From IMG/VR virus record IMGVR_UViG_3300010358_000006, positions 1-40,330 of that record: a DNA stretch of 40,330 bases; one strand, written 5' to 3'. The number at the start of each line of letters is the position of its first letter. Position 1 is the stretch's first letter. The DNA comes from a virus (taxonomy: Duplodnaviria; Caudoviricetes). Positions 1 through 40,330 of the stretch are shown piece after piece. Made by a program: the position numbers and the translations under genes. Below the pieces are notes generated by a model. It saw nothing but the letters and a program-made list of their open reading frames with translations, ran no database searches and was not told the DNA's origin.

Positions 1-535
1 CTCTCTGCCGTCGCTGCCACAAGAGCGCGAACCGCGAGCTGCCGGGTGGGGGCACATCGGTAACGCGTCTCTCTCCGGCGGGTCCCGCCGAGACACTCGC
101 GGCGCCTCGGGCTACCCCACCCACCGCGGCCGCGTTGCCGGGCTCGACGACGTTGTCGTGCCGGGTGGCGTTGGCAGTGCCGACAATGCTGCGCGTGTGG
201 TGGGTGCGCACGCGTGCCTTGCGGTGGCAGCGCCGGCAGAGCGCCTCGAGGTTCGCCCACGCGTTCGCGCCGGGTTCGTTTGGGCAGCGGCCGTCGCGGT
301 GGTGCACCTCGTGCGCCTCGAGTCCGCACCGTGCGCATCGTGGGTGGGCGTGTAGGTAGGCGTTGCGTGCTCGGGTCCAGTGCCACCCGTAGCCGCCGTT
401 GGCGCGCCGCCTGCCCTCGTCGGTGCGTCGCCAGTTGTCCCACGAGGTGCGTCCGTGTGCGGTGCACCTGCCGGGTCCGCCCTCGACGAGCTCCGTGCAG
501 CCGGGTTGCGCGCATAGGTGCGTGGTGCGTCGCAC
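1..535 (-). CDS. Terminase-associated HNH endonuclease (HK97 gp74-like), runs off the left edge of the window
   Basis: Not in the ORF track. Manual translation from GTG 535: MRRTTHLCAQPGCTELV..RCTAH..GYGWHWTRARNAYLHAHPRCARCG..EVHHRDG..NAWANLEALCRRCHRK, a typical phage HNH pattern. The frame stays open to position 1. Confidence 0.85.
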   Translation of the reverse strand, partial: MRRTTHLCAQPGCTELVEGGPGRCTAHGRTSWDNWRRTDEGRRRANGGYGWHWTRARNAYLHAHPRCARCGLEAHEVHHRDGRCPNEPGANAWANLEALCRRCHRKARVRTHHTRSIVGTANATRHDNVVEPGNAAAVGGVARGAASVSAGPAGERRVTDVPPPGSSRFALLWQRRQR

Positions 536-3088: not shown

Positions 3089-5161
3089 ATGAATGCAAGA
3101 CCTCGCCAACGTCCCTCGCGGGCGTTGCGCGAAACCCTCTTTTTACGCTCGGGCGGCGTCTGCGAGCGCGACGGTTGCGATACGCCGATCACGCTCGAGA
3201 CGATGCAGGTCGCGCATTTGCGCTCGCACGCGCACGGCGGCCCGCTCACGATCGAGAACACGGCCGCATGGTGCGCGCCATGCAACCACACTCAGGGATG
3301 GCGGGATGCCGCCGACACGCGTCTATTGCCGCGCCAGTGGCAGCTCGACGCGCTCGACCGGATCGTTGCGCGGATCGCGCGCGACGGCGTCGCGACCGTC
3401 AGCGCCGCCCCGGGCGCCGGCAAAACGATCTTCGCCGGCCTTGTATTCGAGGCGCTCTATGAGGCCGACCTCGTCGACCGCATGGTCGTCCTCGCGCCGC
3501 GGCTAACGCTCGTCGACCAATGGGTCGGCGCGCTTCTCGGCGCCCGCCATCTTCAATTGCGTCCCGGTCATGAGGTCGAACGCGACGGCCAGGACGGCGT
3601 CGTTGTCACCTATCAGTCGTTGAACGCCGACACGCTCGCGGTGCATCGCCGCATGGCCGCGCACCAACGCACGCTCCTCGTCCCCGACGAGGTCCACCAC
3701 GTCGGCGAGCACGAACGCTCCGCGTGGGCCCGCAACGTGCGGGAGCTCGCCGGCGTCGTCGACGTCGACCTCCACGTCGCCGGCGTCCTCAACCTCTCCG
3801 GGACGCTTTGGCGCTCCCGCACCGACGAGCGCATCTCGACCGTCCGCTACCGCGCGGCCGGCGAGAACAAAATCGAGGCGCTCGTCGACCACGACGAACC
3901 GACCGCGAAACTGATTCTCGACGGCCAACTACGCCCCGTTGACCTCCACACGATCGACGGCCGCGTCGAGCTATTCGAAACCGCGAACTTCCAAATGGTC
4001 GCGTCCGACATGATCGACCTCGACGAGCCGGCCGCGCGCGCCGTCATCCGCGAGCTCGCCGGACAACAGCCGTGGCTCGAGGCGTTCGTCGCGAAAATCC
4101 TCGGCCAGCTACAGCAGGCGCACGACCTTCTCGAGGGCCACCCTGTCAAAGCGCTAATCGTTGCCGCCCGGCAAGAGGACGCCTACATCTACCGCGACGA
4201 GGTCAACCGGCAAATGCGCGCGCTCGGACTTACCCCGTTCGCCGAGGTCGCTGTCTCCGACGAGCCCGACGCGGCCGCGACCCTGAGACGGTTTCGCGGC
4301 TCGCCGAATGCGGGCGTCCTCTGTACGGTCGACATGGCGGGCGAGGGCTACGACTGTCCCGATATCGCCGTCATCGGTTACGCCTCGAACAAACTCACGC
4401 CGCTCTACATTCGGCAGGTGATCGCGCGCGCGATGCGGGTCACCGAAACCGAACGCCGGCTCGGACAGGTGATTCCCGCCGTCGTCGTCGCGCCGAACGT
4501 TGAGCCGCTCCTCGGAACACTCAAGGCGCACCTAGGCCCGTTCTCGCACGAAATCATGCTTGAGGCGCAACGCGACCTCCGCGCGACCGGCGAGGGCGAG
4601 GGCCAGCTGCGGTTGCACGAACAGCCCTACATCATCGACTCGGTTGTCCCGGGCCAGCAGTTCGTAACCGTGCCGCTACCCGAGGGCGAAGGAATCACGT
4701 TCACCGAACAACAACTCGCGGCGATGGGCGATCTATTCCGCCGTTTCAACGTGCCCGCGATCTGGCATGCCCGGTTTGTCGCTGCGATGCAAGATTGGAT
4801 GCGCGAGCAACAGCGCTCCAATCCATTCGACCCGCGGTTCGCCGACACGGACGCTGCCGGGTCGGCTCCGGTCGGCCGGCGTGAGCCGAGCATCGAGGAG
4901 CTCGCCGAAATCCGCACGGGTCAGATTCGCCGGCTCGAGCGGTGGTTCGCGGTCAACGGCGATACGCCGATTCAACTCTGGGTCGCGCGCGCCAACAAAA
5001 CCGCCGGCATCCCGACCGGCAAACGCGCCGAGGCGACCGTCGAACAACTCGAGCGACTCCTCACGATCGAGCGCGACCTGATCGCCGCCTACTGCCGCGA
5101 GAGCGGCACAACCCCGCCACGCGGGAGCTTCACACGGGAGGCGGGCGGCGCCGATGCCTGA
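3089..5161 (+). CDS. N-terminal HNH nuclease fused to an SF2 (ResIII/DExH) helicase
   Basis: HNH: CERDGC..QVAH..HGGPLTIEN..CAPCN. Helicase: APGAGKT, DEVHH, LSGT, DMAGEGYDCP, QVIARAMR. Confidence 0.85.
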   Translation: MNARPRQRPSRALRETLFLRSGGVCERDGCDTPITLETMQVAHLRSHAHGGPLTIENTAAWCAPCNHTQGWRDAADTRLLPRQWQLDALDRIVARIARDGVATVSAAPGAGKTIFAGLVFEALYEADLVDRMVVLAPRLTLVDQWVGALLGARHLQLRPGHEVERDGQDGVVVTYQSLNADTLAVHRRMAAHQRTLLVPDEVHHVGEHERSAWARNVRELAGVVDVDLHVAGVLNLSGTLWRSRTDERISTVRYRAAGENKIEALVDHDEPTAKLILDGQLRPVDLHTIDGRVELFETANFQMVASDMIDLDEPAARAVIRELAGQQPWLEAFVAKILGQLQQAHDLLEGHPVKALIVAARQEDAYIYRDEVNRQMRALGLTPFAEVAVSDEPDAAATLRRFRGSPNAGVLCTVDMAGEGYDCPDIAVIGYASNKLTPLYIRQVIARAMRVTETERRLGQVIPAVVVAPNVEPLLGTLKAHLGPFSHEIMLEAQRDLRATGEGEGQLRLHEQPYIIDSVVPGQQFVTVPLPEGEGITFTEQQLAAMGDLFRRFNVPAIWHARFVAAMQDWMREQQRSNPFDPRFADTDAAGSAPVGRREPSIEELAEIRTGQIRRLERWFAVNGDTPIQLWVARANKTAGIPTGKRAEATVEQLERLLTIERDLIAAYCRESGTTPPRGSFTREAGGADA

Positions 5162-5756
5162 ACCACTCGACAACCACGGCCGCGAAGTGAGCTCGTTTAT
5201 CTCGCGGGCGACCAACCTCACTCGCACCGCCGAGCTCGTCGACGTCATCTCAGAGATGGCCGCCTCCGACGCGTGGCGCGACTACACGACCGCGCTCGGC
5301 CGCCAACAGTGGCGCGAGTCGGAGTTTGATTACTTCCTGATCGCGTGCGGATTGCCGTTCGCGGACGTCTCGCGCGTGATTGCGTGGTCGCGTAAGGGCG
5401 GGCAGTTGGCGCCGATGATGGATACGCAGGCGAACGCGGAGCGGCGGCGCACGCTCGCGGAGGCGTCGGCCGCCTACCGTTCGCCCGGCACGTCGCTCGT
5501 CGAGGAGGCGCAACGACTCGGTTGGGCACGCGCTCCCGGCCATGGTGCCAGCCTCCCCATGGGGACTCTGAAGTCAGCGATCCCGAAACAGTCGCGGGCG
5601 CGTGCTCGTCGTGCCGCGCGGCCTGAGCCGCTCCCGGCCAAGCGGCGCCGCGAGCTCGACCGGCTCAGCGATGAGATTCTCGCCGGGCTCGCGAACAACG
5701 ACGAGCGCCGCTACCTCATCGCCCGTCTCAGTCGCAAGCAAGGCCGGCCGTCATGA
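5154..5756 (+). CDS. Hypothetical protein, operon partner of the HNH-helicase
   Basis: 8-nt overlap with the helicase gene; WRDY..G..FDYF..GL motif; basic C-terminus. Confidence 0.75.
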   Translation: MPEPLDNHGREVSSFISRATNLTRTAELVDVISEMAASDAWRDYTTALGRQQWRESEFDYFLIACGLPFADVSRVIAWSRKGGQLAPMMDTQANAERRRTLAEASAAYRSPGTSLVEEAQRLGWARAPGHGASLPMGTLKSAIPKQSRARARRAARPEPLPAKRRRELDRLSDEILAGLANNDERRYLIARLSRKQGRPS

Positions 5757-5962
5757 AGCGGCGCGAGCCGACACCATCCGATCGGGCCGCGCTTCTGCGG
5801 GCGGCCCGTTCGGAGCGCCTCGCACGCGAACGCTGGGACAGATCGCTCGCCGTGCTCGAGCAAGCGATCAAGCAGGCATCGGCTAACGGCGCCAGCCTGC
5901 GCGAAATCGCGGCGCTGATCGGTCGTTCCCATGGTCGCGTTCGTGACCTCATTCACCGCTGA
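5753..5962 (+). CDS. Small HTH protein
   Basis: ATGA overlap; AIKQASANGASLREIAALIGRSHGRVRDLI. Confidence 0.8.
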   Translation: MKRREPTPSDRAALLRAARSERLARERWDRSLAVLEQAIKQASANGASLREIAALIGRSHGRVRDLIHR

Positions 5963-6886: not shown

Positions 6887-7591
6887 ATGAGCGCCCACGA
6901 GCCCGAGCCACTCACGCTGTTCGAACTCACGTCGATTCCGAGTCGCCAGGTGACAGACCCGACGCTTGCGCTCGAGGGTGAACGCTGGTGTTCCGGGTCC
7001 GGGGTGCCCGGCGACAACTGCGAGTTTGGTCATCCGGTCGCCGCGGAGTGGACGGATGTAGCTTGGCGAGAGACGTCTAGAGAAATGCGAGATACATCGC
7101 GCATTTCTTACAACCGGGCGATGTGCTCCCGCTGCGAGCAGACGCGGCGCAACTATCTCGACAGCGTCGAGGATGGCGATGTGGCAAAGGCCCGAGCGTG
7201 GCTTAGTGATGAGGCGCGGAAGTTTGCGAAAGCATGGGGCTGCACCTCTGCCGAGGCCCGCTACCGATTCGAACTCCACGGGGTCACTCTTGATTTCATG
7301 ACGAGACTGTTCAAGGACGCTAGGGCACGCGGGACGTGTCCAGACTGGCGACACGGCGGTTGCAACACGGCGTTCGCCCCCGGCCCTCACGACGTCACTG
7401 GCGACATCAAAGACCCCGTCGCCGTGGAGGAGCGCGGCTACCTGCTTGCTGACGACATTCACGCTCAATGCTTCACCTGCAACCGAAAGAAAAACCGCAA
7501 ACGGTGGGATGAGTGGCTTCGCGTCTGCGCGTTCTTTCACTCGTGCGATCTGTATGAGCCACCCGGTCGACAGGTGCCGCTTGGGTCGTAG
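6887..7591 (+). CDS. Cys-rich HNH-like protein, lone plus-strand gene
   Basis: CSRC, CPD..GC and DDIHAQCFTCNRKK motifs; lower-GC codon usage. Confidence 0.6.
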   Translation: MSAHEPEPLTLFELTSIPSRQVTDPTLALEGERWCSGSGVPGDNCEFGHPVAAEWTDVAWRETSREMRDTSRISYNRAMCSRCEQTRRNYLDSVEDGDVAKARAWLSDEARKFAKAWGCTSAEARYRFELHGVTLDFMTRLFKDARARGTCPDWRHGGCNTAFAPGPHDVTGDIKDPVAVEERGYLLADDIHAQCFTCNRKKNRKRWDEWLRVCAFFHSCDLYEPPGRQVPLGS

Positions 7592-11370: not shown

Positions 11371-13068
11371 TCATGCCACCGCCTCGGGTTCTGGCGGTAG
11401 CAGACTCAAGAGCGAGAGTTGCTGCAGGCGTTTCGCCGTCAGTGCCGCGTAGATGGGGTTGAGCTCGATGCCGACGCAATTGAGCTCGAGCTCGCGCGCC
11501 ACGAGCGCGGTCGTGCCCGAGCCGATGAACGGGTCGAGCACCACGCCGCGGCGCCATTGGTTGTGTCCGCAGTCGGTCCACCCGATGGTGCGCGAGTCGG
11601 CGTCGTAGAACCCGGCGCGGCGTGGGCGGACCTCGCCGGCTGCGAGGGTGGGGGTGATGGTGGGGGTTGCGGGGGTGCGCTCGACGATGCGTTCACGTGG
11701 CCGGCCGCAGACTCGGCACACGTAGCGAGGGCAGCCGGCGCGCAGGCAGCGGCGCACGAGCTCGGGCGGGTACGTGGCGAAATGCGCCTCCGCGTACGGC
11801 GCCGTCGGGATCGTCCACACGGTGCGCACGTTCCGCGTCGCCGACGGGTTGCCGTTCCGCGAGTCGATGCCGGCGTCGAGCCGCTTGTCGATTGACGCGC
11901 GGTCGGTCGGTCCTTGCCCGTCGACTGCCTTGCGGCTGCGCAGCAAACCGAGGTCGGTGCCCTCGACCGCCGGCTCGGCGACCGCGTCCTGGTCGAACGT
12001 GTAGCGGCCGCGCTTGGTGAGCATGAACACGTACTCGTGCGCCTTGGTCGGGCGGTCGGTCACCGACTCGGGCATCGGGTTCGGCTTGCTCCAAATGACG
12101 TCGGCACGGAGGTACCACCCGGCGGCTTGGAGCGCGAGGGCAAGCCGCGCGGGAATGAGCGCATCGTCCTTAGCCTTGAGCGCGAGCGCGACCGGCCGTG
12201 GCTCGCGCGGTGTCACCTCGGGTTCGTCGCGCTGATTGCACGCCGACACGGACCGCTTGAGCGCCTCGCGATAGGCGATAGCGTCGTCGGACAATGGCCT
12301 TACGCGGTGGCCACGCCGAGCGGCGATATCGTCGAGCAACATGATTCCGAGCGCCGCCTGCCGCCGTTTCGTGACGAGAAACGGATAGAGCGCGCGGAGT
12401 AACTCGCTCGTTTGCCGACCGCGGACCGACCAATCCCAGACGCCGCGGTTCTGTTGGTGGCAAGAGCCGAGCCCGGTAATCGCATGTGCGCGCTCAACCG
12501 CCTCGCGCGTCATCATCCCCACGCTCAGGTCCAGTTGGAACGCATCGCAGGTGCCGGCGGCGCGTCGCTGCCGATGTATCTGAATGCACCCCTCGCCGTC
12601 GATGAGCCCGGCGAGCCAAGCGGCATCGGTCGGCGCGAGCGGGTAGCCGTCCTCGCTTATGTAGGTCGAGCCGATGTTGAGCCACACGGTGCCGTGCGGC
12701 GCCAAGACCCGCCGTATCTCGGCGAACACCTCGACCATCCGCTCGACGTACCGGTCGGGCGAGGCCTCGAGCCCTAGCTGCCGGTCCACCCGCACCGCGC
12801 CGCACCGTGTGCAGGTGTCGCGTTGCGGGGTCGCGCCCGTGAACGAACGGGTCGAGCGCTGCCCGCTTTCGCCTTGCGCGCCGTTCGATGGTGCGTGCTC
12901 GCAGAACCCGTCGCCGCCCTCCCACTCGCCGGTGCCGTAGTCACGCAAACCCCAATACGGCGGCGACGTGACGACGCAATCGACGGACTCGTCGCGGAGC
13001 TCGGCGAGCATGTCGAGCACCTCGCCGGTGTAGAGCACGAAATCGGTGCCGATCACCTGCCGGCTCAC
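11371..13068 (-). CDS. Beta-class N4-C/N6-A DNA methyltransferase with an in-frame LAGLIDADG domain
   Basis: GTG 13068; TSPPYW (motif IV), W.KPNPMPESV.DRPT, HFATYP, DPFIGSGTT (motif I); the insert contains AWLAGLIDGEG. Confidence 0.9.
   Translation of the reverse strand: MSRQVIGTDFVLYTGEVLDMLAELRDESVDCVVTSPPYWGLRDYGTGEWEGGDGFCEHAPSNGAQGESGQRSTRSFTGATPQRDTCTRCGAVRVDRQLGLEASPDRYVERMVEVFAEIRRVLAPHGTVWLNIGSTYISEDGYPLAPTDAAWLAGLIDGEGCIQIHRQRRAAGTCDAFQLDLSVGMMTREAVERAHAITGLGSCHQQNRGVWDWSVRGRQTSELLRALYPFLVTKRRQAALGIMLLDDIAARRGHRVRPLSDDAIAYREALKRSVSACNQRDEPEVTPREPRPVALALKAKDDALIPARLALALQAAGWYLRADVIWSKPNPMPESVTDRPTKAHEYVFMLTKRGRYTFDQDAVAEPAVEGTDLGLLRSRKAVDGQGPTDRASIDKRLDAGIDSRNGNPSATRNVRTVWTIPTAPYAEAHFATYPPELVRRCLRAGCPRYVCRVCGRPRERIVERTPATPTITPTLAAGEVRPRRAGFYDADSRTIGWTDCGHNQWRRGVVLDPFIGSGTTALVARELELNCVGIELNPIYAALTAKRLQQLSLLSLLPPEPEAVA
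12180..12665 (-). mobile_element. LAGLIDADG homing-endonuclease-like domain inserted in the methyltransferase (boundaries approximate)
   Basis: WLAGLIDGEGCI..L.V.M..WSV.G..LL..LYPFLVTKRRQA; no intein splice motifs. Confidence 0.75.
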
Positions 13069-14372: not shown

Positions 14373-14566
14373 CTGCACCCCTTGCGCGGTTCGATCCACG
14401 GGTGCGTTCGCCGGTGCTCGCGTTCGTGCTCAATCTTGTCGGCGCACTGGTCGCAGATACCTTCGGCCACCCGTGCAATGGCGAGCGCGATCATGCCGCG
14501 CCCGCCATCGACGGTGACCACGCGGCCGACGGTGCCGCAGTGGTAGCAGTAGCCCGGCAGCCTCAT
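14369..14566 (-). CDS. Small Zn-binding protein
   Basis: ATGA overlap with int; CYHC..CDQC. Confidence 0.7.
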   Translation of the reverse strand: MRLPGYCYHCGTVGRVVTVDGGRGMIALAIARVAEGICDQCADKIEHEREHRRTHPWIEPRKGCR

Positions 14567-15867
14567 GACGCCGCCCCTAGCGCCGCACGGAGCCCCAGGG
14601 GCGCCGCGTCGGCGAGGGCGCGACCAACGCGTCGGGTGCGGTCACCTTGGTCGTACACGGCGTCTATGAGCTCGCCGCGGTCGTGGTGCCCGATGCGTGC
14701 CGCGGCGACGTCGCGGTCGATGCCGAGGTCACGCATGAACGTCACCGCGGTCGCGCGCAGGTCGTGGGTGGTGATGGTGCGCCTGCCGTCGTCGTTTCGC
14801 CGGCGCCCGTCCGGGGGCGCCTCGAGCGGGTCGACGTACCACTCGAACGGCGTTGGGTCCGTCGGTCCGAGCCCGTTGTCGGCACGCCAATCGTCGGCGG
14901 CGGCGCTGACGCCGGGCTGCCACACGAGCCGGTCGTATTGCGTGTGCCGCCACGGCACCGGCCCTTGCTTGGTGCGCCTGACGGTGCCGGTGGGGTAGAC
15001 CTGAACGCCGGCGGTCATGAACACGCGCGGCGCGCCGGGCATCGTCGTCGGGCAGCCGCTCGTCGGCGAGCTCGTCACGGCGTGCAGCCCGCCGAGTTGC
15101 TCGCGCGCCAAGGCGACCTCTTCGGGGGTGAGCGGTATGCGCTTGTCGCGGCGCTCTTTGCAGTTGGTGCGCGGCACAAACATGGTGGGCGTGTCTGCGT
15201 CGAGCTCGAGGTGCGCGGGTTCGGCGCCGAACAGTTCGTCGATCCTGTTGCCGACGGTCGCTTGAAAGAGCACGAGCCGCCGGCCGATGGCGGGCACCCG
15301 CGGCACGAGGTAGTCGAGCTCGAACGGGGTGAGCGCGACACGTTCGCGCGCCTCGACGATGATGGGCGGGATGCGCATGATCGCGAGGTCGAACGTGTGG
15401 CCGCGGTCGGCGGCGTAGTTCAACGTCGCGAGCAGCCCTTGCCGTATCTTGCGCGCCTTATCGGGCGTGCGTGTCGCGACGGTAAGTAGGTGGTCCTCGA
15501 GCGGCGCGCGCCGCAGGAGCGATAGCGGGGTGTCGGCGAACGGTCCCTCGAGCCACGGCTCGAGTAGCCGTTCCCAATGCGCCTCGCCGCCGCGGGTGAG
15601 TTTGCGTCGGGTGCCGGTGACGCGTTTGCGTGTCATGAGCGCGCCGGCTGCGTCCTTGAGTGGCGGGTCGCCGGCGACGTCGGTGGGTGGCAAGCCGAGC
15701 TCCAAGCGCTCGTCGAGCTCGAGCGCGCGCCGGTTCGCCTGCGCGAGCGTGTCGAAATATTCGCTGACGCGCCCGTACGGCGCGGGGAACACCTTGCGGA
15801 CCCGTGGGCGGCGGCCGGGTTGGACGTCGACGCCGGCGAGCCGGACGGGGTCGGTGCTAGTGGACAC
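14563..15867 (-). CDS. int: Tyrosine integrase
   Basis: AGGAGG RBS before GTG 15867; catalytic GNRIDE, HDLR, IGH and VY. Confidence 0.9.
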   Translation of the reverse strand: MSTSTDPVRLAGVDVQPGRRPRVRKVFPAPYGRVSEYFDTLAQANRRALELDERLELGLPPTDVAGDPPLKDAAGALMTRKRVTGTRRKLTRGGEAHWERLLEPWLEGPFADTPLSLLRRAPLEDHLLTVATRTPDKARKIRQGLLATLNYAADRGHTFDLAIMRIPPIIVEARERVALTPFELDYLVPRVPAIGRRLVLFQATVGNRIDELFGAEPAHLELDADTPTMFVPRTNCKERRDKRIPLTPEEVALAREQLGGLHAVTSSPTSGCPTTMPGAPRVFMTAGVQVYPTGTVRRTKQGPVPWRHTQYDRLVWQPGVSAAADDWRADNGLGPTDPTPFEWYVDPLEAPPDGRRRNDDGRRTITTHDLRATAVTFMRDLGIDRDVAAARIGHHDRGELIDAVYDQGDRTRRVGRALADAAPLGLRAALGAAS

Positions 15868-21834: not shown

Positions 21835-22040
21835 GCGACCGCGCTGCCCCTTTTCGGCGACCCGTTCGAGCTCGCCACGAGCGTCGCGAGCCGCTCCTCG
21901 AAATCGTGCGCGTACACGAGTAGCCCGTCGATGCCGAACACCGTGTCGGGCTGCTCCGGTTGCGCCTCGGCGGTGACCTTGCCGTCGTCGTCGACGTCTT
22001 GGAGCACCGGCAGAATCATGAACTTGTACGTGCGGTACAT
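21831..22040 (-). CDS. Hypothetical protein
   Basis: TGATG and GTGA overlaps with its neighbours. Confidence 0.65.
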   Translation of the reverse strand: MYRTYKFMILPVLQDVDDDGKVTAEAQPEQPDTVFGIDGLLVYAHDFEERLATLVASSNGSPKRGSAVA

Positions 22041-22225
22041 CAGGGCGCCGGCGACATCGTCGGGATGATGTCCACACCGGCGACGCCGGCGCCGACGACG
22101 TTGAGGTTGACGGTGTCCTTTGTCTCGTCGCCGCCGAGCGCCTTGAGGACCGCGTCGGCGGCCTCGGTGGGCGTGAGCGTCCACGCGTCGCCGGGTTGGA
22201 TCGTGACGGTTGCGTTCACCTGCAT
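22040..22225 (-). CDS. Small protein, paralog of 22236..22412
   Basis: AGGAGG RBS; LKALGGDETKD. Confidence 0.7.
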   Translation of the reverse strand: MQVNATVTIQPGDAWTLTPTEAADAVLKALGGDETKDTVNLNVVGAGVAGVDIIPTMSPAP

Positions 22226-22235
22226 GATTGACCTC

Positions 22236-22412
22236 CTAGCGCGGCAGGGCTGCCGGGGTTATCTCGGTCGGTGGCGGGGTGTGCCCGGCGGTGACAGAAA
22301 CACCGATTGAGTCTTTGGTCGGGTCGCCGCCGAGCGCGGTAAGCATCTCGGCCGGCGACATCGTCGGTGTCTCGTCGCCGTCCGCGAGGTTTATCTGGAT
22401 GCTGATGTTCAT
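22236..22412 (-). CDS. Small protein (58 aa), paralog of 22040..22225
   Basis: AAGGAGG RBS; MNISIQINLADG..LTALGGDPTKD. Confidence 0.7.
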   Translation of the reverse strand: MNISIQINLADGDETPTMSPAEMLTALGGDPTKDSIGVSVTAGHTPPPTEITPAALPR

Positions 22413-22421
22413 GCTCCTCCT

Positions 22422-25400
22422 TTAGCCGATGGCTCTTTGCACGCCTGTCGGGTCGACGTAATAGAGCCGGTTGTCGCTGCCGACGTACAGGACTCCGAAG
22501 ACGCCGCCGACGTTCGGCACCACGGAGATGTTGCTCTTGTAGATCGCGATCGTGTACTCGTTCGCCTGGTTCCCGCCCCTGGTGCCGGGGCCGACCGAGA
22601 AGCACTGGTCGGTCGCGAGTTGCCCCGCCGCGACACCACGGATAATCACGTCGGCAGGGGTGCCGCGAAGCCGGATCGTGCCGTCGTTCCAGAGCAGGAT
22701 CTGGGTGCTCGCGTTCCCGTTGTTCGCGGAGTAGTAGCCGCTGGCGACGAAGTTCGACTGCAGCGCCAGAGTGCCCGCACCGCCCCGGTTCAAGACCGTG
22801 TCGGCGCCCGTTGAGCCTCCCGGCCCCCAGTGCATCGTCCCGGCCACATCGATCCAGAAGCGCCACTGCGCCTCCCCCTGGACCGCGCTCACGAGCGCGT
22901 TCCCGGCCGCCGAGGTCGGGTTGAACACAAACCCGTTCCCGTTCGCGCTCGTGAAGCACGAATAGACCTGGCTCCCGGCGATCAGGTAGCCGTCGGTCAT
23001 CACCTGCCCCGCGACTCTCCGGTAGAGGTTCGTGTCGCCCGCCGAGCCAAAACGGAGCGGCGCCCCGGTCCCGCCCTGGTCAACGTCGATGCCCTTCCCG
23101 GCCTGGAAGTTGGTGTCGGTGCGGAGGTAGCCCGCCGCTGGGCGGTACAGGTTCGTGTCGTTCGCGGAGCCGAAGGTCAATCCCGCGAGGCCACCGCCGA
23201 TGTCCCCGAGTGCGACCTGGGAAGACGCTCCGAGCCGAGCGGCAAGTGACCCGCCAGCCTGGAACGCACTGTCGGTGCCAACGATCGCGGCACTCCTTCG
23301 GTACAGGTTCGTGTCGGGCACGGTTGAGCCGCCCGGCCCCCACAAATGCCTCCCGTCACCGTTGAGTTGGAACCCGGGTTGCGCGTCGGTGCCGACAAGC
23401 AGGTTCCGGATGATCCGGGTGCCCGCCGCGATGGCGATGTCGGATGGGAGGGCGCCGGCGGCGGCGGGCGCGAGTTGCCAGGTGCCGTCGTCACGGAGGA
23501 ACCGGGTGCCGTCCCGAGCTCCGGCGCCCAATGACGCGGGGGTGACGAGGCCGTCAACGACGAGCGAGCCGCCGGTGCGTAGCTGGTTCGCGGCGCTGCG
23601 GTACAGGTTCGTGTCCTGCGCGTTGCCGAAATAGATGATCGGGCCGTTGTTGTACGACTGCAACGTCAGTTGCGAGGTCGTGCCCATGAACGCGCCGAAG
23701 CTGTTCGGGGTGCCAAGGAAACCCGCCGCCCACCGGTACAGCGTCGTGTCATTTGCGGCGTTCCCCGGCCCCCAAGTGATAGTGCCGTTCGCGTTGACGA
23801 TGAACCGGGGTGACGTGTCGCCGCTCACGCTCGCCTGGTACGCGCTGTACCCGGCGCCGCCCATGTTCACGGCGTTGAACCCGATCACGGCTTGCATCGC
23901 CCCGTCCGTCTTGAGGGTGTTCGCCGCCGAGCGGTACAGGTAGGTGTCGGTCGAGGTATCGAAGATCAACCCTGCACCCCTACCGGCCGCGTTTCCAATG
24001 ATCACCTGCATACCGGCTTGGCCGTTCCTTGCGGTGAGTTGCCCGTCGGTTGCCAGAACACTCGCACTGGAGCGGTACAAGGTTGTGTCGGCCGGGTTCG
24101 TCTTGTCGCCCCACCGCATCGTCCCGGTGTTCTCGATGCGGAAGTACGGCTGCGTCGCCGCCCCGGCGTCGTACATGACGAACGGCCACACGGTGTTGTC
24201 AGCCATGATCGTCAGGCTTGTCGGGAGGGCGCCGCCGCCGACCATTAGCTGTTTCGCCCCGTTCCGTTGCAAGTTGCAGTCAAACGCTGTCGCGCCGCCA
24301 GGCCCCCAACGCATCAACCCGTCGTAGCGGAGAGCGAACATGGAGTTGGCGTCGGATGCGACCGTGGACGTGACCGCCCATCCGCCTGCCGGGTTCGGGT
24401 TGTAGTAGAACCCGGTGCCGCCTCCGGTGCCGAGCGCGACAACACCGGTGCCGACGTAGAGGCCGCCGTCGGTTCTAAGCGCGTTCGCGAAGTAGCGGTA
24501 CAGGTTCGTGTCTGCGGCTGTTGAGCCGCCCGGCCCCCAGTTCATCCGGCCGCCGACATCGACGCCCCACCGGTAGTTGGCCTCGCCCTGCACTTGCGAG
24601 ATGCCGAACCACCCGTTAGCGGCGACGGAGTAGCGCCAGAACCCCGTGGCACCGCTTGAGGGGGCGAGCGAGACCCATGTGCCATCGGTCCCGAGTTGAC
24701 CGGCGCTCGAGCGGTACAGGTTCGTGTCGGTGGCGGTTGAGCCGCCCGGCCCCCAGTTGTGTCGCCCGTCCCACCAGAGCGTGAACCGCGCGAGCGCCTC
24801 ACCGTTCACCGTGGAACGAAACACGTTCCCGCTCGTTGAGGACGGGAACGCGGAGTACACCTGACCGCTGCCGCTGTAAGCGAGCAGCTCGTTGGTTTGG
24901 AGCTGGGCAGGCCCGGCTCGGAGCAACGTGGTGTCCGGGGCGGTCGCGCCTCCCGGCCCCCACCAGTGCTGACCGGTCCCCGTGATGTAGAACGCCGACT
25001 GCGCGTCGGTTTCGAGCAGCTTGTTGCGGATGACGGTGTTGCCGGCGGCTTGCTGCGCTCGGAAAGCGCCGGTCGAGCTCGCGTCAACGATGATCGGTGA
25101 TGAGCCGAGCGAACCTGCCGCGTTCCGGTACAGGTTCGTGTCGGGGTTCGTGATCGTGCCGTCCGCCCACGTCAGTTTCCCGGTTGGGTCGACGCTCCAG
25201 CGGACGGTGCCGGTGTCGCCGAGCACGGCCGCGCTGAACGCGTACCCGGACGTCGTCGCTCTGACGGAACCGAAGGTGCCGCCCGGCCCCTGATAGGTTC
25301 CGGCGCCGACCGCGTTGTAGCCGAACACGCCCTGTGCCGCACCGGTCGAGAGGCCGTTCGGCATGTTCAGGATCACCGAGCCGCCTCCGGTAGCGGGAAG

Positions 25401-35243: not shown

Positions 35244-36203
35244 TTACGCGGCGTGCAGGACGCCGAACGGGTAGCGGTTCGCGGTGGTCGGCTGCGAGTA
35301 GGTGAGCGGGTTCGCGACCTGGAACGCGAACCGTGCGACCACGCGAATCGCGATCATGTCTTGCTGCGCGAGGTTGTACTGAATCACCGGCGGCGAGCTC
35401 GAGTCGGTGATGATCGCTTGGTCGAGGATCTTGAACGTGATGTCCTGCCTGACGCCCAAGAGCCCTTGGGTGAAGTCCCCGACGACGGCTTGCGCGGCGC
35501 CGGTGCCGGTCGGCCACAACCCGGGCATCGCGTACCGGATCGGGACGCTATACACGCTCGCTTGCGCCTGTTCGGCGTCGGTGCCGTTCCCGGTTTGCAA
35601 CTGCTCGCCGGTGGTGCCGCGGGCGTCGCGCAGCTTGCCGCGCATCGTGCGGTCGGCGACCATCCCGTCGACGTCGAACCCGTCGGCCTCAACGGTCGCC
35701 ATCGCCGCGGAGATGTCGCCGACGATGCCGCCGCTTGCGGCGGGCAGCCCGACAGTGGTCGTGTTCCCGGCTGCGGTCGCCGCGGGCACAATCGCTTGCG
35801 GCCACGACGCCGGCTTGTTCGTGCCGAAGAAAATCGCCGCGTCCAAGGCGCGCCCGATTGCTTCGGTCAACTGCGGGCGGATGACCGCCCATAGGTCGTA
35901 GTCGACGTCGTCGAACACGTTCTCGGGGATCGGGACGATTGCGGCGAGCTCCTCGGCGTTCAGGTAGAGGTTCGACCATGCCGACTGCGATGTTTGCTTG
36001 ACACCGGTGTCGCCGCTGACGAAATACGCGGTCGCCAAGGCGGACTCGGCGGGGATACGAAACTGCGCCCGCGACATGGCGACACGCCTGAACAGCGCCA
36101 TCGCCGCCGACTCGTCGGGTATGTGCGTGATGATCTCCCTCGAGAATTCCTCGGGGATGAGTGCTGCCGCGTCGGTGCGGCCAATCGAGTTGTTATATGG
36201 CAT
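35244..36203 (-). CDS. Major capsid protein (HK97 fold)
   Basis: LIPEE.S.EII..A.FV..K..EELA.IVP..D.A..FG..GDF..QQDM.A.R..R. Confidence 0.92.
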   Translation of the reverse strand: MPYNNSIGRTDAAALIPEEFSREIITHIPDESAAMALFRRVAMSRAQFRIPAESALATAYFVSGDTGVKQTSQSAWSNLYLNAEELAAIVPIPENVFDDVDYDLWAVIRPQLTEAIGRALDAAIFFGTNKPASWPQAIVPAATAAGNTTTVGLPAASGGIVGDISAAMATVEADGFDVDGMVADRTMRGKLRDARGTTGEQLQTGNGTDAEQAQASVYSVPIRYAMPGLWPTGTGAAQAVVGDFTQGLLGVRQDITFKILDQAIITDSSSPPVIQYNLAQQDMIAIRVVARFAFQVANPLTYSQPTTANRYPFGVLHAA

Positions 36204-36242: not shown

Positions 36243-36821
36243 CTAGTTCCTCCCGGTCGCTTGCCGAATCAGCGTGTTCATGTCGGCGCCACTGCGGCCG
36301 CTTGCCGTGCCTCCGCGCCCGCCGCCGAGGTCACCCACGGCGCCTTTGCGCTCCTCGAGGTAGCGCTGCGCGTCGGCCTTGATCGTGCGAACGTCGGTCC
36401 CTTGCAGCCGGTGCGCCGCGTCGAGTGGTATCCCGACGTCGGCGCAGACGGTGCGTTTGAGCTCGAGCAGTTCGAGGTCGGCGAGCCGCTGCTCGGCGTC
36501 GTGCCGCGCGGTCCGCTCCTGCTCGAGCTCGGACGTTGTTCGTTCGAGCCGGCTTGTGGTCCGCTCGAGCTCGGATTTCCCGACGTCCTCGAGCTCTTGC
36601 AGGCGGCGCTCGGCCTCGGCTGCGCGCTGCTCGGCGTCGCGCCTCGCAGCCCGTTCCTTGGTGAGCACCTCCTGCCGGCGGTCACGACCGCCGGTAGTGG
36701 CGTCGTCAGTGCTGCCGGCGCTCGCGTCGCGCTCATCGCCGGCGGGCCCGTCAGGCGTCGCGCCATCGGGGGTCAGGGCATCGTCGGGCGTCGCGCCCGA
36801 GTCGCCGGTTTCGTCAGGCAT
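36243..36821 (-). CDS. Capsid scaffolding protein
   Basis: Acidic N-terminus; coiled coil with KSELER; RL.G...I.ADA; C-terminal MN.LIR. Confidence 0.85.
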   Translation of the reverse strand: MPDETGDSGATPDDALTPDGATPDGPAGDERDASAGSTDDATTGGRDRRQEVLTKERAARRDAEQRAAEAERRLQELEDVGKSELERTTSRLERTTSELEQERTARHDAEQRLADLELLELKRTVCADVGIPLDAAHRLQGTDVRTIKADAQRYLEERKGAVGDLGGGRGGTASGRSGADMNTLIRQATGRN

Positions 36822-38271
36822 TCGTTCCTCCGGTAGTTGCGGTTACGGGTGGCGAGCTCGCCGGCGCAACACCGATTTGGGCTGCCGCCTCGGCGGGCGT
36901 CGGGGTGATCGTTTCGCGCGCGGTGACCGCCGGCCCCTCGACGTCGGCGCCCTCGGCGATGAACCGCTCGACCTGCTGCGGCGTGAACCCGACGTACTCC
37001 CACAACGCCGGTCTTGGCACCCCGATGCTGCTCAACTTGACGGCGGCGTCGACGGTTTCCGCGGTCGAGCGCGACTCGGGGTTCGCCCAAATCGTTTCGA
37101 CGTCCCACGCGGTCGCCTTGGCTTGGTCGCCGGCGACGGCGAACGCCAACCGCATGACCTCCTCCCACCCCTCGCCGAACGCGGCTTGCTTGCGGCGCAC
37201 CTTCGCGACCAAACCCGTCTCGGTCGCTTTCAACGACTCCCCCGACGGGAACGTGCCGCTCGAGCCCAAAAGGTAGTGGGGAGGGGTGCGGGTTTGCGCC
37301 GCCAAATGCTGAATGAGCGCCTCAATCGCGCGCACATACGGCGACAGGTCCGAGATAGCGAACGAGCCGAACGCGGCTTGCATGTCCTCGACCGCCCATA
37401 TCTGCCCCGAGCCCGACTTGAATTGGCTTTTCCACTCGGGCAGCGGGTCGCCGGCGTTCGGGTGCCCATCCGGATACTTCGGAATGTCCACCCCGGTCAT
37501 CCACCGTTGCGGAAACGCCGCGTACTCGCTCGCGACGATCATGTCGGCGCACAACTTGTTGACGGCGTCTTGGATCGGGATGCACCGCTCGACGTCCGAG
37601 CGTCCCTCGCGCACGGTCAACGTCGGCATGTTCGGCAGCGGCACCAAGGGCACGATGGGCGCGAGCGGGTTGGTGCCGCTCAACTCCGGGAGCGCCTCCC
37701 ACCCCTTGTTGGTGCCCTCGCGGCGCCACCAAACGACCATGTCGGGCAGGTAGAGCACGCACTGCTCGGTGCCCCACTCGTCAACCCAATCGCGTAGCCC
37801 GGCGAGCCGGTGGCGGCCTTGCGCGGGGTCGACCGCGACAATCGCTTGCGACGGCGACTCGAGTTGGATCGAGGGGTCGCCCATGTCGTCGGGGAACACG
37901 AGCGCGTAGGCGCAGCCGAGCCGGATCGCCTCGCCGTGCGCGAGCTCGCTTTCGGCGTCGAGGTAGTTCCGCTGCCAAATCTGCCATGACTCGGCGTCGC
38001 CCTCCTCCTGGTCGTTCCCGAACCTGAACCCCTCGACCTTCAAACGCTCGGTCGAGGCGTCGCACACGAGGTCGCACCAGTTGTCGGAGAACGCGCCGAA
38101 CAGCGTCCCGAACGTCTCGCGAAACTTGATCGTCGCGAAGAGCAGCCGGTGCTCGCCGCGGTAGTAACTCTCGAACCGGTCGAGGTCCGGCTGCCGCGCG
38201 GCGAGCCCCTTCAAGAGCGTGTCGCGCCACTGCTCGACGAGCGACACGCCGGTGGCCGTGTAGGTGCTCAA
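36814..38271 (-). CDS. Portal protein (SPP1 gp6-like)
   Basis: TTG 38271; YY.G.H..NW..V.D..ERL.V.GF..W..N.LD; FPQRW.TG; SGESL. Confidence 0.92.
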   Translation of the reverse strand: MSTYTATGVSLVEQWRDTLLKGLAARQPDLDRFESYYRGEHRLLFATIKFRETFGTLFGAFSDNWCDLVCDASTERLKVEGFRFGNDQEEGDAESWQIWQRNYLDAESELAHGEAIRLGCAYALVFPDDMGDPSIQLESPSQAIVAVDPAQGRHRLAGLRDWVDEWGTEQCVLYLPDMVVWWRREGTNKGWEALPELSGTNPLAPIVPLVPLPNMPTLTVREGRSDVERCIPIQDAVNKLCADMIVASEYAAFPQRWMTGVDIPKYPDGHPNAGDPLPEWKSQFKSGSGQIWAVEDMQAAFGSFAISDLSPYVRAIEALIQHLAAQTRTPPHYLLGSSGTFPSGESLKATETGLVAKVRRKQAAFGEGWEEVMRLAFAVAGDQAKATAWDVETIWANPESRSTAETVDAAVKLSSIGVPRPALWEYVGFTPQQVERFIAEGADVEGPAVTARETITPTPAEAAAQIGVAPASSPPVTATTGGTNA

Positions 38272-39782
38272 AACGACACCGGCACCCGTGATCGCGCAGG
38301 CGCAGCCGGACCCAAGAGCGTGCGCGCCTCCCACGCCAGTAGCGCGGCGTGCGCCGCGGCGATGGGCGCGCCGCCTTTCGAGGCCTCGGCGAGATACGGC
38401 AGGTTCCGCACCCGCTGCACCCGCGCCGCCAACACGTGCCGCGCCAAGCGGCGGTCGCCGTCGTGGCGGATTCGGCCGGCGACCGCGTCGGCGCGGAACC
38501 GTTGCGTCACCTGCGCCGTCCTCGGCGACGGCGTCGCGACGTCAATGTCGACGACGTTGCGTTTACCGAGCAGGTGCGTCCACGCGTTCACCATCGTCGC
38601 CCACGCCGGCGTCGCGGCGGCGTAGACGGCGCCGACGCGGTACTCGCCGAGCGCCCACTGCACGGCGTCGTCGACGTCCTCGGTATCGACGAGCTCGCCG
38701 GCTTTCGACTCCCACACGCCCAAGGTGAACAGGACCCCGTCGGCGCGGCGGCACGCGACCAAGGCGCAGTGCTCGCCGCCGCGGAAACCGAGCACGACCT
38801 CGTCGCCCGTGTGGAGCTCGGCGCGCTCGAGCTCGAGCGCGCGCCACGGCTCGAGCTCGAGAAACCCCGACTCGCTCGTCGCCCACACGCACCCGTGCAA
38901 CTGCAGAAACCGGCCGTCCGTGAGTAGCGGCGACGCCGCGAGCTCGGCCAACCGCTCACGCGTCACCCACGACGCCGGGTTCGCCGCCTTGATCGCGTCA
39001 AGGTCGTGCACGTCCAAGGTGCCGGCGTCGTAGTTGTAAACCAACGTGCGGCCCGGATGGTTCCGCGACACCGTCAACTTGCCGACACGCTCGAGCTCAC
39101 CCTCGAGCTCATTGCGGTCAAGCAGATTCCCAAGAATCCCATCGACACGCTCCGCGGGCTCACCCGCGGTCGAGATGACGAACACGTGCACCTGTTTACG
39201 CACGACCTGCCCGGCGGTGGCGATGTCACCCCACGCCCTGCGCCGCCGCGGGGTGGTCCAGTCCTTGAGCTCGTCGGCGACGATCAGCGACGGGTTGAAC
39301 CCCGACGCGGCGCCACTGTCGGCCGAGAACCGGTAGAGCACGCCGAACCCGTCCGCGCGCGCGATCACGCCCTCGTGCTCACGAACCACGACCTGACCCG
39401 ACAACCACGGGTCGCTCTTGACGAACCGCACCGCCGACTCGAACAACCTGCCGGCCTGCTTATCGGTCGCGGCCGCCAAGAGGATTTCCGGGGCGCCCTC
39501 GTCCTCGACCAAGTGGTAGAGCCCGTACGCGGCAAGCAGACTCGTCTTGCCGTTCTTTTTCGGCACGACGAGCACCACCGTGAGCCAATACGACTCGTCG
39601 ACGCCGAGCTCCGCGAGCGCCTCGCCCATGAGCTCGAGTTGCCACGGCTCGAGCACCAGCGGCACGCCGTCGAACGGGTCGACCCACTGCACGCAATGCT
39701 CGCCCGCCCAATACGCGAAATGGTCGGCGCGCGTCGCCTGCGCGTAGGCCTCCCACCGCTCACCGACCGCGACCGCGCTCAC
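38268..39782 (-). CDS. terL: Terminase large subunit; ATPase intact, nuclease acidic residues apparently lost
   Basis: GTG 39782; LEPWQ, PKKNGKT, ADEL, ISTAG, ANP; C-terminal domain reads GFRGG, YAAA and PIAAA. Confidence 0.9.
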   Translation of the reverse strand: MSAVAVGERWEAYAQATRADHFAYWAGEHCVQWVDPFDGVPLVLEPWQLELMGEALAELGVDESYWLTVVLVVPKKNGKTSLLAAYGLYHLVEDEGAPEILLAAATDKQAGRLFESAVRFVKSDPWLSGQVVVREHEGVIARADGFGVLYRFSADSGAASGFNPSLIVADELKDWTTPRRRRAWGDIATAGQVVRKQVHVFVISTAGEPAERVDGILGNLLDRNELEGELERVGKLTVSRNHPGRTLVYNYDAGTLDVHDLDAIKAANPASWVTRERLAELAASPLLTDGRFLQLHGCVWATSESGFLELEPWRALELERAELHTGDEVVLGFRGGEHCALVACRRADGVLFTLGVWESKAGELVDTEDVDDAVQWALGEYRVGAVYAAATPAWATMVNAWTHLLGKRNVVDIDVATPSPRTAQVTQRFRADAVAGRIRHDGDRRLARHVLAARVQRVRNLPYLAEASKGGAPIAAAHAALLAWEARTLLGPAAPARSRVPVSF

Positions 39783-39874
39783 CGCACCCGCCGCCGCCGG
39801 CGCCGCGCCGGCCGCCGGTCCTCGATGTCGAGCCAATCCTCGAGCACGCCGCCCTTCAACGGCTCGACGTTCAC
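39779..39874 (-). CDS. 31-aa peptide between terS and terL
   Basis: GTGA overlaps at both ends; MNVEPLKGGVLEDWLDIEDRRPARRRRRRVR. Confidence 0.55.
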   Translation of the reverse strand: MNVEPLKGGVLEDWLDIEDRRPARRRRRRVR

Positions 39875-40284: not shown

Positions 40285-40330
40285 AGAGCCAACCTTCGTC
40301 GCGCGATTTCCGGCAGGTTCTGCGCGCGAC

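Follow-up and report, generated by a model that had tools for sequence, protein, structure and literature searches.

Textbook large terminases (TerL) both cut and pump DNA, and the sole described exception, that of phi29, needs no cut. In phage HK97, which encodes gp1 (the small terminase, TerS), gp2 (TerL, structure 6z6d) and gp74 (an HNH endonuclease), the catalytic residues of TerL are D302, D388 and D471, and D302 forms a salt bridge with K463 (PMC9410871). The 10-base overhang of HK97 could arise from one TerL cut and one gp74 cut, and a TerS-type motif lies ∼15–29 bases from the cut (PMC11331095). The gp16 protein of phi29 combines an ATPase with a shrunken, non-cutting RNase H-derived domain, and phi29 has no TerS and carries protein-capped unit-length DNA (PMC7672431). 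Here we describe the TerL encoded by a 40,330-base virus contig, IMG/VR record IMGVR_UViG_3300010358_000006, analysed at its whole length and called the window below. The window shares the TerL and TerS families of HK97, its HNH–cos–TerS–TerL–portal order and the approximate distance of the TerS-type motif from the cut; unlike HK97, it has an SPP1-type portal and a contractile tail, and D302, D388, D471 and K463 are all replaced, which leaves none of the catalytic triad. In contrast to phi29, its apparently non-cutting domain keeps a full-length fold and is accompanied by TerS, an HNH gene and a joined form of the DNA.

A first-pass annotation of the window had proposed that its TerL retains intact ATPase motifs and a complete C-terminal domain from which all metal-binding sites were lost. 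The ATPase motifs are indeed intact (PKKNGKT at residues 74–80, ADEL at 169 and STAG at 204), and the nuclease-domain motifs read VVLGFRGGEHCALV at 329, VYAAATPAW at 386 and APIAAAHAALLA at 472. In the window TerL, Pfam recognized the ATPase family only (PF03354, E = 1.4e-12); the nuclease-domain family PF20441 matched neither this protein nor any of six records searched. A profile built from 116 of the top 120 homologues (325 matches in total) aligned across both domains to HK97 TerL (6z6d, E = 2e-26) and placed D302, D388, D471 and K463 opposite R334, A389, A475 and A467 respectively. The AlphaFold model of the protein had a mean pLDDT (predicted local distance difference test) of 95.2, its best structural match was again HK97 6z6d (Foldseek E = 2.6e-20; VIA Z 30.1), and residues 304–488 superposed on the G20c nuclease 5m1f over 171 residues (Z 17.3, root-mean-square deviation 2.8 Å). 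Judged from the sequence and the model built on it, the nuclease domain is full length and its fold is retained, while the metal ligands are absent. The claim that every site was lost is slightly too strong: the three catalytic aspartates are gone, but the second acid of the D.TALV motif survives as E337, a D or E in 48 of the 58 clade members introduced below. This position is not among the three named catalytic residues of HK97, and the TerL nuclease site is very probably dead.

The 120 best of the 325 homologues split on the alignment into two groups, assigned by eye: a dead clade of 58 clusters at 90% identity, 51–80% identical to the window TerL, and 62 active relatives. All three metal-ligand columns lack an acid in 57 of the 58 dead-clade clusters, whereas all three aspartates are present in 61 of the 62 next-nearest relatives (Asp in 61, 62 and 62 at columns 334, 389 and 475). 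Specifically, column 334 of the dead clade is Arg in all but two members and never Asp, column 389 is never Asp, and column 475 is Asp once; apart from this single Asp, the three columns and the two residues on either side of each are free of acids. The K463 column is Lys in 62/62 active relatives and in 0/58 of the dead clade, every member of which is acidic at 466 or 467. R334 and this acid may thus form an ion pair, with the charges swapped, that occupies the pocket. Neither sequencing error nor chance accounts for the lost acids, because the loss is clade-wide (57/58) and a public-run contig covering 36787–40330 shows 0 differences from the window; that contig may derive from the source sample and is therefore not independent.

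To the question raised in the annotation, whether proteins sharing the lost-aspartate pattern form a clade, the answer is yes. A tree of the ATPase region alone grouped 55/55 dead-clade members with support of 0.966 (three partial proteins were dropped), and the clade received an ultrafast bootstrap (UFBoot) value of 100 in an ATPase-only tree of 15 members, 19 active relatives and five outgroup rows. Since these trees are blind to the lost columns and still group the members, they argue for a single origin. The dead nuclease domain had a median ratio of nonsynonymous to synonymous substitution rates (dN/dS) of 0.25, vs 0.18 for the ATPase (45 pairs, 10 close loci), and on these codon comparisons it is under purifying selection. 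It is also less acidic, with a median net charge of 0 vs −6 in active relatives. Together with the clade-wide loss and the intact ATPase, the dN/dS value supports the suggestion that selection maintains a TerL acting as translocase only.

A search of 1.84 billion representatives added dead-clade fragments and a handful of independent, scattered losses (P0195, P0253 and P0254); 107 of the 148 new proteins retain all three aspartates. One clade member, P0045, carries an intein in Walker A. In P0060 the first Asp alone is lost; it may be a half-way sister of the dead clade, although this placement was weakly supported (UFBoot 74). Two BFVD entries annotated as 'HNHc domain containing protein', A0A6J5QUV0 and A0A6J5RK67 (586 and 602 residues), align structurally to TerL and are possibly HNH–TerL fusions or inteins. 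Dead-clade TerL occurs with both SPP1-type and HK97-type portals: at L012:2947-7532 it lies beside an HK97-type portal, prohead protease and capsid gene rather than an SPP1-type portal. The nearest cultured TerLs, those of the Streptomyces phages phiC31 and phiBT1, are distant (tblastn 32%, residues 11–383), and no cultured member of the dead clade was found among 50,697 phage records at the tblastn sensitivity used. Three contigs of metagenome-assembled genomes (MAGs) of uncultured Solirubrobacterales carry a same-clade TerL at 54–59% identity, in satellite-like islands (L108:6500-14000, L109:4950-9000 and L110:10000-16900). Portal, capsid and sheath gave no match in these islands, which contain excisionase-like and other genes, including a primase in L108; the L108 island retains HNH, cos module and TerS, and TerL is split in L109.

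Fixed genome ends were judged from the ends of assembled contigs. A conserved module between HNH and TerS comprises a G-run followed by a short core (GAGC-AAG-CT or GCGG-GAC-GTC), 19 further bases and a GGAAA motif. In the dead clade, seven of 50 loci (duplicates included) have GGAAA within their first 60 bases, at an offset of 19 in four (the window record L144, L012, L059 and L066), 20 in one (L161) and 35 in two, both from one record. L067 starts, by homology, at the same base as the offset-19 loci, and in G002, whose module is inverted, the end lies at a distance of 19 bases from GGAAA on the other strand. On the G-run side, contigs L001, L003 and L007 end at −22. The last base of the window, 40330, is also where a contig from a second assembly ends (run X1, possibly of the same sample). 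Among 159 active loci (duplicates included), GGAAA falls in the first 60 bases in 22, with an offset of 13 in 11 of these, so that the TerS-side end of the dead clade is shifted by six bases relative to active relatives, or by five if anchored on GGAC. Fifteen copies that read through the end site could be lined up. Because such joined copies exist and contigs end at fixed bases, DNA cutting is both needed and occurring, and we are fairly confident that fixed cut ends lie between HNH and TerS.

Comparison of the two ends of G002 with the read-through copies L004 and L148 revealed three missing bases. Library end repair removes 3′ overhangs, and we therefore read this gap as a 3-base 3′ overhang. 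Across the joined ends of both two-ended genomes, the HNH frame terminates precisely at the TerS start only with a gap of 0 or a multiple of three; it likewise ends on the TerS start in the read-through copies L004, L005, L148 and L155. The overhang would thus be three bases in G002-type genomes, and in the window a multiple of three by this weak frame test, compared with 10 in HK97. An overhang estimate from G-run distances was dropped, as these are too variable, and a scan for further dead-clade right ends gave none that were new. The cos module is inverted in the relatives L001, L003, L004, L007 and L148 (in one subgroup, at L004:41-260, at L148:1563-1750 and at the ends of L007 and L226), and at 44–125 of the window two G-rich arms stand head to head. 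One may speculate that the near-symmetric GAC core explains these flipped modules.

An intact HNH gene spans the end site next to TerS and, in the linear window, lies at the end opposite TerL and TerS. It has an N-terminal zinc finger, its catalytic residues H79, N95 and H104 are invariant in 12/12 copies, and one HNH subfamily is found at the cut site throughout the dead clade. The annotation had asked whether an extended HNH protein is conserved; the extension proved to be unconserved read-through, 13–89 residues past the core in 13 copies. Dimeric HNH-fold enzymes (I-PpoI, PacI and Hpy99I) leave 3′ overhangs of 2–5 bases, a range that the 3-base overhang fits. In a census of loci with at least 2.5 kb upstream and at least 36% identity, obtained with unbiased seeds and with duplicates removed, HNH was upstream of TerL in 10 of 13 dead loci; an earlier count (12/16 dead, 3/57 active) was discarded as biased by dead-clade seeds. 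A six-frame search of the flanks of 223 loci detected no second TerL-like gene, multiple TerL matches at one locus overlapping or adjoining as in split genes. PF03354, PF17289 and PF03237 likewise matched only the single TerL in five genomes, three of which are at least 90% complete.

With TerL dead and no spare terminase, the simplest reading is that TerL only pumps DNA and that the adjacent HNH makes both cos nicks, to which we assign a probability of about 0.6. Of the annotation's proposals for how the ends are made, that of another enzyme fits the joined form and the fixed end base, and HNH is the likely candidate. Arg at the first metal ligand, together with the acid at the HK97 K463 position, is predicted to plug the TerL pocket; TerS would bind the GGAAA motif and set the cut register, and two HNH nicks three bases apart would generate the 3-base 3′ overhang. 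The TerS-side end would have moved by 5–6 bases from its position in active-TerL relatives, as expected if this nick changed hands, and the shift fits a TerS-side nick that was formerly TerL's. The dead domain may be retained to grip DNA, dock to the portal and stall at cos, and the short ends may be joined after infection with the help of Ku/LigD end joining.

Several observations weigh against HNH as the sole cutter. Acids survive at E337 and at 466/467. HNH is also upstream in 20/25 active relatives, so that it is ancestral and adjacency alone proves nothing, and it is absent upstream in three of the 13 dead loci (L059, which starts at the cut site, and the island remnants L109 and L110). 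The purified sk1 packaging HNH cuts non-specifically on its own (PMC12967558), HK97 gp74 is described as enhancing cleavage by the terminase, for which its metal-binding His is needed (PMC13595911), and the window encodes other nucleases, namely RusA, a RecE-like exonuclease and an HNH–helicase. As for the ends, the frame test has a chance rate of ∼1 in 9; the 3-base gap derives from the two-ended G002 and three one-ended contigs set against the read-throughs L004 and L148; the right end of the window has no G-run at the distance seen in relatives, and a 4-base gap would also be possible. GGAAA is not in the first 60 bases of 43/50 dead-clade loci (duplicates included), whose contigs are fragments, inverted copies or read-throughs. 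For active relatives, three scans aimed at right ends or junctions gave only read-through copies or nothing, and Ku was not found in the window. A complex prediction for the TerL C-terminal domain with HNH (score 0.01, mark 0.32) was used neither for nor against.

One alternative is that HNH makes at most one nick and that another phage nuclease (RusA or a second HNH) or a host nuclease makes the other. The RusA and HNH–helicase genes of the window speak for it, as does a second HNH or PD-(D/E)XK-looking open reading frame (ORF; labelled by eye) beside TerS in L001, L064, L003 and L009. The extra genes beside TerS are patchy, however, compared with one HNH subfamily at the cut site clade-wide, and we consider such a division of labour unlikely.

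We consider similarly unlikely a rebuilt site in TerL, made up of E337, the 466/467 acid and perhaps R334, which would nick one strand and would have shifted the cut, while HNH would nick the other strand. The acid at 466/467 is universal, column 337 is acidic in 48/58 members, R334 is strongly conserved, and the domain is under purifying selection. Yet 10/58 members have G, A, R or T at column 337, no acid other than the one Asp lies within two residues of the metal-ligand columns, and Arg occupies the first metal-ligand position. Moreover, the conservation of the Arg/acid pair is explained without invoking catalysis, since the pair mirrors the D302–K463 salt bridge of HK97 (PMC9410871).

It is very unlikely that a helper phage, or a second gene that escaped recognition, provides an active terminase in trans. 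The three MAG copies do reside in satellite-like islands without head genes; against this, the window has a full set of virion genes, the five genomes contain no second match to PF03354, PF20441, PF17289 or PF03237, and the cut register is unlike that of active relatives.

Even less probable is that no cutting is needed, unit-length DNA being made by protein priming or with hairpin ends. The precedent is phi29, whose gp16 is the known vestigial terminase nuclease (PMC7672431). In the window, however, there are no terminal direct or inverted repeats, the ends are not self-complementary, TerS and an integrase are present, and none of the 51 ORFs matched polymerase B or terminal protein; protelomerase (N15-type) gave no Pfam match among these ORFs either, no dedicated family search having been made. 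In addition, the HNH frame extends across the end site, which is also spanned by 15 read-through copies. The annotation's second proposal, packaging of pre-formed unit-length DNA, thus does not fit. Finally, the shared contig ends are scarcely to be explained by assemblies having broken at an element that is invertible or structured, rather than by real ends: forks at the module inverted in some relatives would break assemblies at fixed places, but fork ends overlap and move with word length, whereas here a gap separates the ends, two assemblies share their last base, and active relatives behave alike at their own offset.

Ends of three bases barely anneal. The mycobacteriophage-type precedents are Omega (cluster J) and Corndog (cluster O), which have 4-base 3′ overhangs and HNH genes near the terminase and use Ku with host LigD (PMC3706429, PMC4351075, PMC12848934). 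Ku is present in one of five dead-clade phage genomes and in 3/3 MAGs carrying a dead-clade TerL; unlike Omega and Corndog, the window lacks it. The single phage copy of Ku (L338; G006 21900-22451) comes from a complete genome of the dead clade.

Among cultured actinophages, we compared 14 hand-picked TerLs, out of 1,472 and 968 matches. Their profile aligns to the active relatives with a probability of 98.6 at 15% identity. The D302 column lacks Asp in 7/14, and the D471 column has Asp in 0/14, although six have an Asp two residues earlier that may serve. Omega, Redno2, Fenry and KilKor lack Asp at both columns. Motifs without the canonical aspartates were noted in Corndog (L336:13529-15040), Omega (L337:4412-6964), Fenry (L345:27-1595) and KilKor (L346:51-1727); Corndog keeps the first Asp. 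An Arg at the first Asp column of Omega was not upheld, the alignment giving Tyr there and Arg one residue on. The alignments suggest that cultured actinophages underwent similar nuclease decay in another TerL lineage, one with only ∼15% profile identity to the active relatives. The accessible text of the three Omega/Corndog papers (PMC3706429, PMC4351075, PMC12848934) contains no mention of TerL decay that we could find.

Overhangs in cluster P (KilKor) are ∼12 bases. The K-type TerL of Hammy, which we take to be a cluster K phage, lacks the third acid. Ends of 11 bases are found in cluster K phages (PMC3203893), so that nuclease decay is not simply tied to short ends, and a rule equating a dead nuclease with a short overhang was dropped on these grounds. 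A broader scheme remains tentative, somewhat less probable than not in our estimate: HNH would be the whole cutter in HNH-associated cos phages, with the TerL nuclease switched off several times (in the soil clade and in Omega, KilKor and Fenry), and the hand-over would have moved one nick, shrunk the cohesive end to three bases, tied the phage to end-joining repair and let the cos module flip.

The literature offered phi29-type cases of an inactive terminase nuclease (PMC13595956, PMC7672431) but, for cos or HNH phages, no account of a TerL with a dead nuclease; most subscription papers and supplements were outside this search. Whether HNH stimulates TerL or makes one cos nick is stated to be open in papers from 2024 and 2026. 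One article cites the one-nick-each model and reports the sk1 HNH to be essential and not to co-elute with TerL (PMC12967558). A dead TerL site combined with precise ends removes one unknown, since nicks in a reconstituted reaction would come from HNH or from a rebuilt site. The clade would hence offer a clean test of cutter identity in a very common packaging system, and the 5–6-base shift of one end predicts which nick was TerL's. Decay in cultured actinophages suggests that the arrangement is wider and testable on phages already in freezers. TerL family, moreover, predicts neither the enzyme nor the overhang at the ends.

Coordinates of the features discussed are collected in Table 1.

Table 1. 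Features of the packaging region and selected other genes of the window; counts refer to dead-clade members.
Feature	Position	Strand	Remarks
TerL, 504 residues, HK97-type (phrog_9), GTG start, ATPase intact, nuclease site very probably dead	38268..39782	-	
Walker A region PKKNGKT, residues 74–80	39543..39563	-	G78 and K79 in 55/55 members covering the region
Walker B D170-E171	39270..39275	-	In 56/56 members covering the region
TerL RNase H-fold C-terminal domain, residues 302–492, fold kept, catalytic acids lost	38307..38879	-	
TerL R334, at HK97 D302	38781..38783	-	Arg in 56/58
TerL E337, surviving second acid	38772..38774	-	D/E in 48/58; G, A, R or T in 10
TerL A389, at HK97 D388	38616..38618	-	Asp in 0/58
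TerL E466-A467, at HK97 K463	38382..38387	-	Acid at either column in 58/58
TerL A475, at HK97 D471	38358..38360	-	Asp in 1/58
TerS, small terminase, 137 residues	39871..40284	-	PF05119 E 1.2e-13, phrog_83
31-residue ORF overlapping TerS stop and TerL start	39779..39874	-	One sub-threshold match only
Left genome end (40330) and GGAAA motif 19 bases in; putative cut site and TerS-binding site	40307..40330	-	
HNH endonuclease, N-terminal zinc finger, core 191–535	1..535	-	PF01844 above cut-off, phrog_144; reading frame open at the contig end
Right genome end, two G-rich cos arms (44–52, 112–125) in inverted arrangement	1..125	-	
Portal, SPP1 gp6-like, start overlapping TerL stop	36814..38271	-	PF05133
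Major capsid protein	35244..36203	-	PF05065
Tyrosine integrase	14563..15867	-	

The window is present in two soil metagenome runs. A further run, X2, contains 0.28 of the window words, which indicates a related strain and carries no information on ends. By gene content (integrase, a RecE/RecT-like pair, RusA, amidase, baseplate J, sheath, capsid, SPP1-type portal, TerL and TerS) the window looks like the genome of a temperate, contractile-tailed phage; the tyrosine integrase likewise points to a temperate life style and implies a circular intermediate.

In six relatives (L030, L059, L060, L061, L062 and L068), ParB-like and PAPS-reductase-like ORFs (labelled by eye) lie between cos and TerS, and TerS has a long N-terminal extension in loci with this cassette, which possibly serves DNA modification. 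Elsewhere in the window, ORFs without family matches encode a small basic protein of 85 residues (621–878, −), a secreted-looking protein of 229 residues with an HESLH motif (1122–1811, −) and a Cys/His-rich protein of 234 residues (6887–7591, +). The HNH fused to a superfamily 2 helicase (3089–5161, +) and two small genes downstream (5154–5962, +) run opposite to most genes and may form a defence or accessory module. An N6/N4 DNA methylase at 11371–13068 (−) carries a LAGLIDADG-like insertion.

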